From NCBI RefSeq assembly GCF_003334305.1, contig NZ_QOWS01000005.1: a stretch of DNA of 64,000 nucleotides. The stretch is one strand, 5' to 3'. The notes under the pieces are model-generated. The model ran no database searches and was not told where the DNA came from. It was given only the letters and a program-made list of their open reading frames with translations. This DNA comes from Escherichia coli. Its GTDB lineage: Bacteria; Pseudomonadota; Gammaproteobacteria; Enterobacterales; Enterobacteriaceae. Positions 30,073-33,169 of the stretch are shown here, piece after piece (position 1 is the stretch's first letter; each line of letters opens with the position of its first letter). The position numbers and the translations under genes are program-made.

Positions 30073-31491
30073 ATGCATGTACACCCCATTTCAACTTTCC
30101 GTTTGTTCCAGGAAGGTCATCTGCTACGTAATAGCATCGCTATTTTTGCGCTAACCACGCTGTTCTATTTTATTGGTGCAGAGTTACGGCTGGTTCACGA
30201 ACTTTCTCTTTTCTGGCCGCTGAATGGCGTAATGGCGGGGGTGTTTGCCCGCTATGTCTGGCTTAATCGACTGCATTACTATGCGATCAGTTATGTGGCG
30301 ATGCTGGTTTATGATGCCATAACCACCGAATGGGGACTGGTTTCACTGGTTATCAATTTCTCCAATATGATGTTTATTGTTACCGTCGCCTTACTGGTCG
30401 TGCGGGATAAGCGTCTGGGGAAAAATAAGTATGAGCCAGTAAGTGCCTTACGGCTATTTAATTACTGTCTCATTGCCGCATTATTATGCGCTATTGTCGG
30501 GGCGATTGGTTCGGTCAGTATTGATAGTCTGGATTTCTGGCCTTTGCTTGCGGACTGGTTCAGTGAGCAATTCTCAACGGGCGTTTTGATCGTGCCTTGT
30601 ATGCTGACGTTGGCTATTCCTGGAGTGCTGCCGCGCTTTAAAGCAGAACAGATGATGCCCGCCATCGCGCTTATTGTGTCGGTTATTGCCTCGGTAGTCA
30701 TTGGCGGAGCGGGGAGTCTGGCGTTCCCGCTGCCTGCATTAATCTGGTGTGCAGTGCGCTATACGCCGCAGGTAACATGTCTGTTGACCTTTGTCACCGG
30801 TGCGGTGGAAATCGTACTGGTGGCAAATTCGGTGATTGATATCTCGGTCGGTTCGCCGTTCTCCATTCCGGAAATGTTCTCCGCACGTCTCGGTATTGCC
30901 ACGATGGCGATATGCCCAATTATGGTTTCTTTTAGCGTGGCAGCGATCAATTCGCTAATGAAGCAAGTTGCGCTGCGAGCCGACTTTGATTTTCTGACTC
31001 AGGTTTACTCACGGTCCGGTCTTTATGAGGCGCTGAAAAGTCCATCGCTGAAACAGACACAACATCTGACGGTCATGCTGCTTGATATTGACTATTTCAA
31101 AAGCATTAACGATAACTATGGACATGAATGTGGCGATAAAGTGTTAAGCGTGTTTGCCCGGCATATTCAGAAGATTGTCGGTGATAAGGGGCTGGTGGCG
31201 CGCATGGGCGGCGAAGAATTTGCTGTTGCAGTGCCGTCGGTGAATCCTGTCGATGGTCTGCTAATGGCGGAAAAAATCCGTAAAGGCGTTGAACTGCAAC
31301 CATTCACCTGGCAACAAAAAACGCTTTATCTCACGGTAAGTATTGGCGTCGGTAGTGGTCGCGCATCGTACCGAACGCTGACCGATGATTTTAATAAATT
31401 GATGGTCGAAGCCGATACGTGTCTGTATCGCTCGAAGAAAGATGGGCGCAACCGTACCAGCACTATGCGTTACGGTGAGGAAGTTGTCTGA
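30073..31491 (+). CDS. dgcF: Membrane-anchored diguanylate cyclase DgcF (YneF), integral-membrane N-terminus + GGDEF (472 aa)
   Basis: ORF 30073..31491; multiple TM helices then GGDEF domain with RMGGEEFAV. Confidence 0.75.
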   Translation: MHVHPISTFRLFQEGHLLRNSIAIFALTTLFYFIGAELRLVHELSLFWPLNGVMAGVFARYVWLNRLHYYAISYVAMLVYDAITTEWGLVSLVINFSNMMFIVTVALLVVRDKRLGKNKYEPVSALRLFNYCLIAALLCAIVGAIGSVSIDSLDFWPLLADWFSEQFSTGVLIVPCMLTLAIPGVLPRFKAEQMMPAIALIVSVIASVVIGGAGSLAFPLPALIWCAVRYTPQVTCLLTFVTGAVEIVLVANSVIDISVGSPFSIPEMFSARLGIATMAICPIMVSFSVAAINSLMKQVALRADFDFLTQVYSRSGLYEALKSPSLKQTQHLTVMLLDIDYFKSINDNYGHECGDKVLSVFARHIQKIVGDKGLVARMGGEEFAVAVPSVNPVDGLLMAEKIRKGVELQPFTWQQKTLYLTVSIGVGSGRASYRTLTDDFNKLMVEADTCLYRSKKDGRNRTSTMRYGEEVV

Positions 31492-31717
31492 CATCTTTAT
31501 TCATTCCGCGCGATTTGAATGCAATGTGTTCTACCACTTTATGATCCAGGAAAAGGCGTATTTCCTCGATTAAACCATGATCCGCGCCACACTTTTCTCA
31601 TAAAACTGCTCATTAATCATCAGGAGTTGATCAAAACAGGGGTTCGGCGTATTAAAGTTTGCTAACCTGTCGTACCAATTCAAACAGGTTGTATGACTAA
31701 TCAGAAGGGAACCCATT

Positions 31718-33169
31718 GTGAAAACACTAAATCGTCGCGATTTTCCCGGTGCACAGTATCCAGAACGTATCATTCAGTTTGGTGAAGGTAACTTCCTGCG
31801 CGCCTTTGTTGACTGGCAAATCGATCTCCTGAATGAGCACACCGATCTGAATTCTGGCGTGGTCGTTGTTCGTCCGATTGAAACTTCATTCCCACCGTCA
31901 CTGAGCACGCAGGATGGTCTGTACACCACCATTATCCGTGGCCTGAATGAGAAGGGGGAAGCGGTCAGCGACGCGCGTCTGATTCGCTCGGTTAATCGTG
32001 AAATCAGCGTCTACAGTGAATACGATGAATTCCTGAAACTGGCTCACAACCCGGAAATGCGCTTTGTTTTCTCTAATACCACCGAAGCGGGTATCAGCTA
32101 CCATGCGGGCGATAAATTCGATGACGCGCCAGCGGTAAGTTATCCGGCAAAACTGACCCGTCTGCTGTTCGAACGTTTTAGCCATTTCAACGGTGCGCTG
32201 GATAAAGGTTGGATCATCATCCCGTGTGAGTTGATCGACTACAATGGCGACGCGTTGCGTGAACTGGTGCTGCGCTATGCGCAAGAGTGGGCACTGCCAG
32301 AAGCATTTATTCAATGGCTGGATCAGGCTAACAGCTTCTGTTCTACGCTGGTGGACCGTATCGTTACCGGTTATCCGCGCGATGAAGTGGCTAAACTGGA
32401 AGAAGAGCTGGGTTATCACGATGGTTTTCTCGACACCGCTGAACACTTTTACCTGTTTGTGATTCAGGGACCGAAATCCTTAGCGACTGAACTGCGTCTG
32501 GACAAATATCCGCTCAACGTGCTGATTGTTGACGATATTAAACCGTACAAAGAACGCAAAGTGGCAATCCTCAACGGTGCGCACACCGCGCTGGTGCCGG
32601 TGGCGTTCCAGGCAGGGCTGGATACCGTAGGTGAAGCGATGAACGATGCTGAAATTTGCGCATTCGTTGAAAAAGCTATCTACGAAGAAATTATTCCGGT
32701 ACTGGATTTGCCTCGTGATGAACTGGAATCTTTCGCCAGTGCAGTCACCGGGCGTTTCCGTAACCCGTACATTAAGCATCAGCTGCTGTCTATCGCGCTC
32801 AACGGTATGACCAAGTTCCGCACTCGCATCCTGCCGCAGCTGCTGGCAGGGCAGAAGGCAAAAGGCACACTTCCGGCGCGCCTTACTTTCGCATTAGCGG
32901 CATTGATTGCCTTCTATCGTGGTGAGCGTAACGGAGAAACATATCCGGTACAGGACGATGCACACTGGCTGGAACGTTATCAGCAACTCTGGAGCCAGCA
33001 TCGTGACCGTGTTATCGGTACCCAGGAACTGGTAGCGATTGTGTTGGCAGAAAAAGACCACTGGGAGCAGGACCTGACGCAAGTGCCTGGTCTGGTCGAG
33101 CAGGTTGCTAATGACCTGGATGCGATTCTTGAAAAAGGGATGCGCGAAGCTGTACGTCCGTTGTGCTAA
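31718..33169 (+). CDS. uxaB: Altronate oxidoreductase (tagaturonate reductase) UxaB, 483 aa
   Basis: ORF 31718..33169 (GTG start); [30 protein letters not shown]. Confidence 0.9.

Follow-up and report, generated by a model that had tools for sequence, protein, structure and literature searches.

The core of the uxaB promoter repeat in Escherichia coli is probably the right half of an ExuR operator adjacent to a published site

The GTACCAATT core upstream of uxaB is probably the right half of an ExuR operator, here called site A, that is paired with the ExuR operator already published for this promoter (site B). ExuR, the hexuronate repressor, is a dimer of the GntR/FadR family, and its control of uxaB is textbook hexuronate regulation. 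The core was noticed in a 64,000-nucleotide stretch of E. coli DNA (the window), where an initial annotation made from the sequence had described it as lying within a 7-bp inverted repeat and had offered that repeat as a candidate ExuR site. The 601 bases around the repeat match many E. coli chromosomes at 100% identity and are present in 5414 of 5426 complete genomes; the RefSeq annotation of those genomes (>5400) places a diguanylate cyclase gene first and then uxaB, encoding tagaturonate reductase. Relative to K-12 MG1655, the segment 31470–31730 carries only two differences (31506 and 31560), both of which fall outside all sites discussed below. The 226-bp intergenic region upstream of uxaB is bounded by the following features:

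30073–31491: upstream GGDEF/diguanylate cyclase open reading frame, with its TGA stop codon at 31489–31491.
31705–31709: Shine-Dalgarno-like AAGGG, ahead of the uxaB GTG.
31718–33169, + strand: uxaB (tagaturonate reductase), GTG start, full-length match to NCBIfam NF002969 (810 bits).

The upstream gene differs in length between the two strains. It is a 472-aa open reading frame here, and dgcF in K-12 is annotated as 315 aa. The match to K-12 MG1655 is limited to nucleotides 434–1419 of the gene (99.3% identity), and K-12 MG1655 therefore lacks the N-terminal sensor part, which shows that the window does not derive from MG1655.

Sites of the FadR subfamily are palindromes with TKGT and ACMA boxes, which stand 3 nt apart in ExuR sites and 2 nt apart in UxuR sites (PMC4494728). 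That study (Suvorova, Korostelev and Gelfand 2015) compiles the ExuR operators of the E. coli exu regulon (uxaC, exuT, exuR and uxaB), and its supplementary table gives two ExuR sites for E. coli uxaB (b1521), GAAGTTGTCTGACATCTTT and CAGGTTGTATGACTAATCA. The GTACCAATT core is part of no site given in that table; for uxaB, the procedure of its authors called only the distal site and site B. A full-text literature search for the site sequences and for the uxaB promoter and operator returned nothing relevant, and no gel-shift, footprint, ChIP or SELEX results for ExuR at uxaB turned up in the literature searched. Four ExuR-type sequences are considered at this promoter:

31480–31498: distal site 1, published ExuR operator GAAGTTGTCTGACATCTTT; rank 1 at 18.7 bits, the best match in the window.
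31523–31539: distal site 2, ExuR-like box AATGTGTTCTACCACTT; 11.65–13.6 bits, rank 2–4 in the window. The 19-mer at 31522–31540 (CAATGTGTTCTACCACTTT) is rank 4 at 11.65 bits and is unlisted.
31664–31680: site A, candidate ExuR-type operator AACCTGTCGTACCAATT; boxes CTGT and ACCA with N3 between them, dyad at 31672. The 19-mer at 31663–31681 (TAACCTGTCGTACCAATTC) is rank 2 at 13.2 bits and is unlisted.
31685–31703: site B, published proximal ExuR operator CAGGTTGTATGACTAATCA; boxes TTGT and ACTA around ATG, dyad at 31694; rank 12 at 8.4 bits.

Site A consists of the left arm of the repeat together with the core, and reads CTGT-CGT-ACCA at 31667–31677; in K-12 it lies at about 1,610,718–1,610,734 of NC_000913.3. 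It follows the ExuR palindrome (TKGT-N3-ACMA) at three of four positions in one box and four of four in the other, with the correct N3. To score the site, a palindromised log-odds ExuR matrix was prepared from 53 unique published 19-mers, from which every uxaB site had been removed, and both strands were scanned. Site A scores 13.2 bits as a 19-mer and 13.4 bits as a 17-mer (rank 2–3 in the 64-kb window), inside the range of the training sites (8.4–23.5 bits for the 19-mer, 8.6 bits upward for the 17-mer), and its two halves are both positive, at 5.5 and 9.9 bits. On the curated matrix, the check named in the initial annotation, the score is not a poor one, as it is the second best of about 64,000 positions. 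Matches of at least 11 bits (17-column) number only five in 64 kb. Four of these, centred at 31489, 31531, 31672 and 31694, lie upstream of uxaB, within the 230 bp before the gene. The fifth, TATCTTGTAATAAAACTTT at 13705–13723 (12.6–13.0 bits), is the sole match of this strength elsewhere and may be due to chance.

The gene downstream of site A is one under ExuR control, a point that is taken from the literature: uxaB is among the hexuronate genes under UxuR, ExuR and UidR (PMC5934670), and its expression is induced by glucuronate and freed from repression when uxuR is deleted (PMC10016265). The membership of uxaB in the hexuronate regulon, on which the initial annotation had built its proposal, is borne out by these reports. 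Taken as sequence, the 31664–31680 region is a strong candidate ExuR binding region. The proposal of a candidate ExuR site thus survives with a different geometry, as the dyad falls at 31672, where the left arm meets the core, and not at 31677, the midpoint of the repeat, and the repeat is not the symmetry of the operator. The description of ExuR operators as palindromes of GGT/ACC-type half-sites fits the right half-site of site A and nothing else there.

To follow these sites across relatives, 80 uxaB loci were collected, one genome per species, from Escherichia, Citrobacter, Enterobacter, Klebsiella, Kluyvera, Kosakonia, Lelliottia, Raoultella, Trabulsiella and other genera, and the region from −130 to +12 was aligned (n = 80, the window and 79 related Enterobacteriaceae promoters). 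The conserved blocks of this alignment are TTGATCAAAACAGGG, TGnTAAnnT, ACCAAT, AGGYTGTATGAC followed by AAT, and the ribosome-binding site. In an unaligned scan with a threshold of 9 bits, 76 of the 80 loci have a site A match, located at −45 to −50 relative to the start codon, and 53 of 80 have a site B match at about −24. The median aligned ExuR scores are 13.4 bits for site A and 11.1 bits for site B, and wherever a locus has both sites they are spaced 21–22 bp apart. Every aligned sequence with site A has an unchanged ACCAAT (31674–31679). The first box is imperfect: CTGT is its E. coli form, and other promoters have TTAT or CTAT, with the G of the GT pair lost. The commonest form of site A is AAGTTAT(C/T)NNACCAAT, or AAGTTAT(C/T)ACACCAAT(C/T) at greater length, which is essentially the K-12 uxaC operator AAGTTATCACACCAATT. 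This operator, read on the other strand, was confirmed 62 bp before uxaC. The comparison with uxaCA that had been proposed earlier therefore yields the same sequence that stands at site A in most other genera, and in some of them (e.g., L058) the identity extends to 17 of 17 positions. Across the 80 loci, the background amounts to 6.9e-4 matches per position at ≥8.6 bits, and most of these matches are the uxaB sites themselves.

Site B, which the published table (PMC4494728 supplementary file 2) gives for b1521 of E. coli and also for Shigella, E. fergusonii, Citrobacter koseri and Klebsiella, has ExuR matrix scores of 8.4–12.2 bits. Its overlap with the repeat is confined to the right arm, beyond which it continues downstream; in the aligned uxaB promoters its AGGYTGTATGAC is nearly invariant, with AAT after it. 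Distal site 1 is conserved in other Escherichia lineages (L001, L002 and L075). This site spans the TGA stop codon of the diguanylate cyclase gene, about 229 bp before uxaB. Distal site 2 lies 42 bp downstream of distal site 1 and is absent from the published table (PMC4494728); similar boxes, with TTCTACCA, recur in loci of Escherichia and Citrobacter (about −188 to −219), which gives distal site 2 a broader conservation than that of the listed distal site 1.

Relatives of ExuR were compared at site A by use of matrices for PdhR, LldR, GlcC, DgoR and FadR from the same table (PMC4494728), all of which except that of FadR are small (9–11 sites). The scores, in bits, are as follows:

PdhR: 6.9 in E. 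coli, against a training minimum of 15.8; orthologue median 5.4.
LldR: 10.2 in E. coli, against a training minimum of 13.6; orthologue median 7.7.
GlcC: 13.7 in E. coli, against a training minimum of 16.7; orthologue median 2.3.
DgoR: 8.1 in E. coli, against a training minimum of 12.9; orthologue median −0.1.
FadR: 6.5 in E. coli, against a training minimum of 7.3; orthologue median 3.6.
ExuR: orthologue median 13.4.

Each of the five relatives falls below its own training minimum and has a low orthologue median, and all five were rejected as the protein that binds site A. For UxuR, a crude matrix with 2-nt spacing was built from three K-12 sites (gntP-uxuA and uxuR promoters). It gives 4.6 bits at site A, compared with 18.6–20.4 bits for its own three sites, and an orthologue median of 4.5 bits. 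Site A does not follow the UxuR plan of TGGT and ACCA separated by N2, and in the N2 register its left box reads TGTC.

These comparisons bear on the reading that site A is bound by another GntR/FadR member, be it UxuR, an ExuR–UxuR heterodimer, or one of GlcC, PdhR and LldR, which we regard as quite improbable. The candidates all recognise TGGT-N3-ACCA-like sites, and ACCAAT is a half-site of the UxuR/PdhR/LldR type, not of the GACAA type that is typical of ExuR. The derepression of uxaB in the uxuR deletion (PMC10016265) agrees with a role for UxuR, and ExuR reportedly has its motif in common with UxuR, with each protein binding the sites of the other (PMC11806353), so sequence alone cannot name the paralogue that binds. 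Against this reading, the K-12 UxuR sites have N2 spacing and their matrix scores site A low, and the scores of PdhR, LldR, GlcC, DgoR and FadR, besides lying under their minima, collapse across orthologues; the 13.7 bits of the GlcC matrix are found in E. coli alone and are not conserved. The geometry and sequence of site A favour ExuR among the candidates. The conservation of site A could have a second source in the core promoter. Its candidate −10 elements, together with a conserved block upstream of them, are:

31627–31648: conserved upstream block TTGATCAAAACAGGGGTTCGGC, whose TTGATCAAAACAGGG is nearly invariant across Enterobacteriaceae uxaB promoters, at about −80.
31650–31655: candidate −10 TATTAA.
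31653–31658: candidate −10 TAAAGT.
31660–31668, + strand: extended −10-like element TGcTAACCT (TGnTAAnnT), which overlaps the left half of site A.

A simple hexamer promoter score does not separate the three −10 candidates, a promoter scan at the locus called no promoter, and the SMRT-Cappable-seq tables hold no uxaB entry. All three candidates would place the start at about 31661–31676, which would put site A between about −12 and +19. At least 95% of the 80 aligned sequences carry the majority base at the TG, TAA and final T positions of the extended −10-like element. Since the left half of site A overlaps this element, part of the conservation of site A may reflect promoter constraint. The stronger form of this argument, in which the real operators are site B and the distal site alone, and site A owes its conservation to the core promoter (−10, discriminator and start) or the 5′ leader and its matrix score to coincidence, is unlikely. 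It draws on the overlap with the conserved TGnTAAnnT, on the curated table (PMC4494728), which has no site there, and on the loss of the key G of the first box in most genera. On the other hand, ACCAAT is invariant where site A is present, yet it lies outside any −10 hexamer. In addition, four Franconibacter/Siccibacter promoters retain the −10-like element (TGnTAnnnT, with the TG, TAA and final T also kept in these four sequences without site A) and have lost ACCAAT, which indicates that this half-site is not simply part of the −10 element. The identity of the common site A form to the uxaC operator, the positive scores of both halves and the very low background match rate also argue against an incidental score.

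The repeat itself is present as described in the initial annotation, with arms that are complementary at 7 of 7 positions across a 13-nt spacer, and the GTACCAATT core is located in its spacer region (31672–31680). The right arm stops 28 bp short of the uxaB GTG, and the distance from the core to this GTG is 38–46 bp. The arms are:

31664–31670, + strand: left arm AACCTGT, which is the left half-site of site A.
31684–31690, + strand: right arm ACAGGTT, which is the 5′ flank and first box of site B; site B contains most of this arm.

A functional role for the repeat as a unit, either as half-sites 20 bp apart for a protein or as a leader-RNA hairpin of uxaB, is highly improbable. Beyond the perfect complementarity of the arms, what speaks for it is that the predicted RNA fold of 31660–31725 employs them as a stem. 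This fold is no better than those of shuffled sequence (z = −0.52; 49 of 200 shuffles are as good). The 64-kb window has 192 perfect inverted repeats of 7 bp whose spacer is ≤20 nt, or about 0.68 per 227 bp. When the 226-bp intergenic region is shuffled with its dinucleotides preserved, the mean is 0.37 and 24% of the shuffles have one or more, such that chance can be expected to produce a repeat like this one (P about 0.24). Among the 80 aligned sequences, the arms are complementary at 7 of 7 positions in four and at 6 of 7 in five, and most sequences keep two or three of the seven pairs. The left arm is AAGTTAT, AACCTAT or AACTTAT in most other genera; the right arm hardly varies and does not change in step with the left. 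A pair count of covariation between the arms found none (68.4% of cells pair, versus 67.8% in shuffles), and a double change at one arm pair occurs in a single sequence. Neither compensatory changes nor a fold that beats shuffled sequence, the marks of a conserved hairpin, were observed. If the start falls after the extended −10 element, the left arm would moreover be untranscribed. The reading of the repeat as a functional unit is largely refuted by its lack of conservation: the repeat is a product of chance, in that the site B flank is complementary to the left half of site A in Escherichia.

Other blocks were seen in the same promoters. The block at 31627–31648 was scored with a KdgR-type matrix made from four K-12 boxes, which were found by pattern search upstream of kdgK, kdgT and kduI. 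On this four-site matrix the block reaches 14–20 bits in many genera and only 6.5 bits in E. coli, compared with about 24 bits for the training sites themselves. The sequence found in many genera, ATCAAAACAGGGTTTCAT, resembles the kdgT box of K-12, AATAAAACAGCGTTTCAAT; in E. coli the right half of this KdgR-like block has decayed to GGTTCG. The block may be a KdgR operator over the −35 region. It also contains TTGAT, a perfect FNR-type half-site. A CRP site was sought by eye near 31606–31623, where the E. coli sequence (palindrome CTGCTCATTAAT/ATTAATCATCAG) is a poor match to TGTGA-N6-TCACA. Several Enterobacter uxaB promoters (among them L035, L039 and L044) have TGTGA-N7-TCACA at about −125 to −105, which is CRP-like with a spacer of 7 instead of 6 nt.

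With the core assigned to an ExuR operator, a model for the promoter can be proposed. Site A (31664–31680) would act from 22 bp, or about two helical turns, upstream of site B (31685–31703), and both sites would fall in the stretch from the candidate −10 elements to the ribosome-binding site of uxaB. Site A is predicted to cover the −10/start region or the first 20 transcribed bases, with site B just downstream, an arrangement typical of steric repression. In the absence of hexuronates, bound ExuR would block the binding or the escape of RNA polymerase, and a sugar-acid inducer would release ExuR from the sites. Two further ExuR-like boxes (31480–31498 and 31523–31539), located 141–205 bp upstream, may take part. 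We infer from sequence the occupancy of site A by ExuR, any cooperation between the sites 22 bp apart, any looping to the distal pair and the position of site A relative to the transcription start.

A more elaborate version of this model is possible, and we hold it to be doubtful. It takes the promoter to have four ExuR-family boxes, against two in the published table, in two in-phase pairs, in which ACCA-type boxes would be contact points for UxuR or an ExuR–UxuR heterodimer and the pairs would loop over 141–205 bp. The pairs may be 31480–31498 with 31523–31539, 42 bp apart, and 31664–31680 with 31685–31703, 22 bp apart. Each pair may combine a GACA-type box with an ACCA-type box, with the unlisted ACCA-type boxes (site A and distal site 2) being the more widely conserved.

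The main correction made here is to the geometry, with the real dyads placed at 31672 and 31694 instead of 31677 and the inverted repeat no longer read as the functional symmetry; a predicted ExuR operator had already been published within the same 40 bp. Site A, which is missing from the published table (PMC4494728), is more widely conserved in Enterobacteriaceae than the listed proximal site. If confirmed, site A would refine the uxaB operator map to a tandem pair over the core promoter, and such a map would be useful for the modelling or engineering of hexuronate-responsive promoters and for separating the roles of ExuR and UxuR. The arrangement is already known in kind, as it is the standard operator layout of a well-known regulon with one proximal site already published. 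That table lacks site A and distal site 2, yet neither is claimed as new.

Compared with known systems, site A shares the family-wide TKGT-N3-ACMA plan with the operators of PdhR (ATTGGTNNNACCAAT), LldR, GlcC, FadR and DgoR, and its right half, ACCAATT, is an exact match to the half-sites of PdhR and LldR. Its left half, in contrast, does not fit these operators, and their regulators have no pathway link to uxaB. The UxuR operators of E. coli K-12 (gntP-uxuA and uxuR) have the ACCAAT/ATTGGT half-site, belong to the same pathway and serve a regulator paralogous to ExuR; they differ from site A in the 2 nt between GT and AC (TGGTNNACCA), where site A has 3. Relative to the operators of the exu regulon (PMC4494728), site A is unlisted for uxaB, its first box is CTGT (TTAT or CTAT elsewhere) and not TTGT or TGGT, and it stands in a tandem pair with site B at 21–22 bp, a tandem that is not seen at uxaC or exuT. 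With these same operators, however, site A shares the TKGT-N3-ACMA plan, the A/T-rich flanks and the score range, and, like them, it precedes a gene of the hexuronate pathway and is near-identical, in other genera, to the operator of uxaC.
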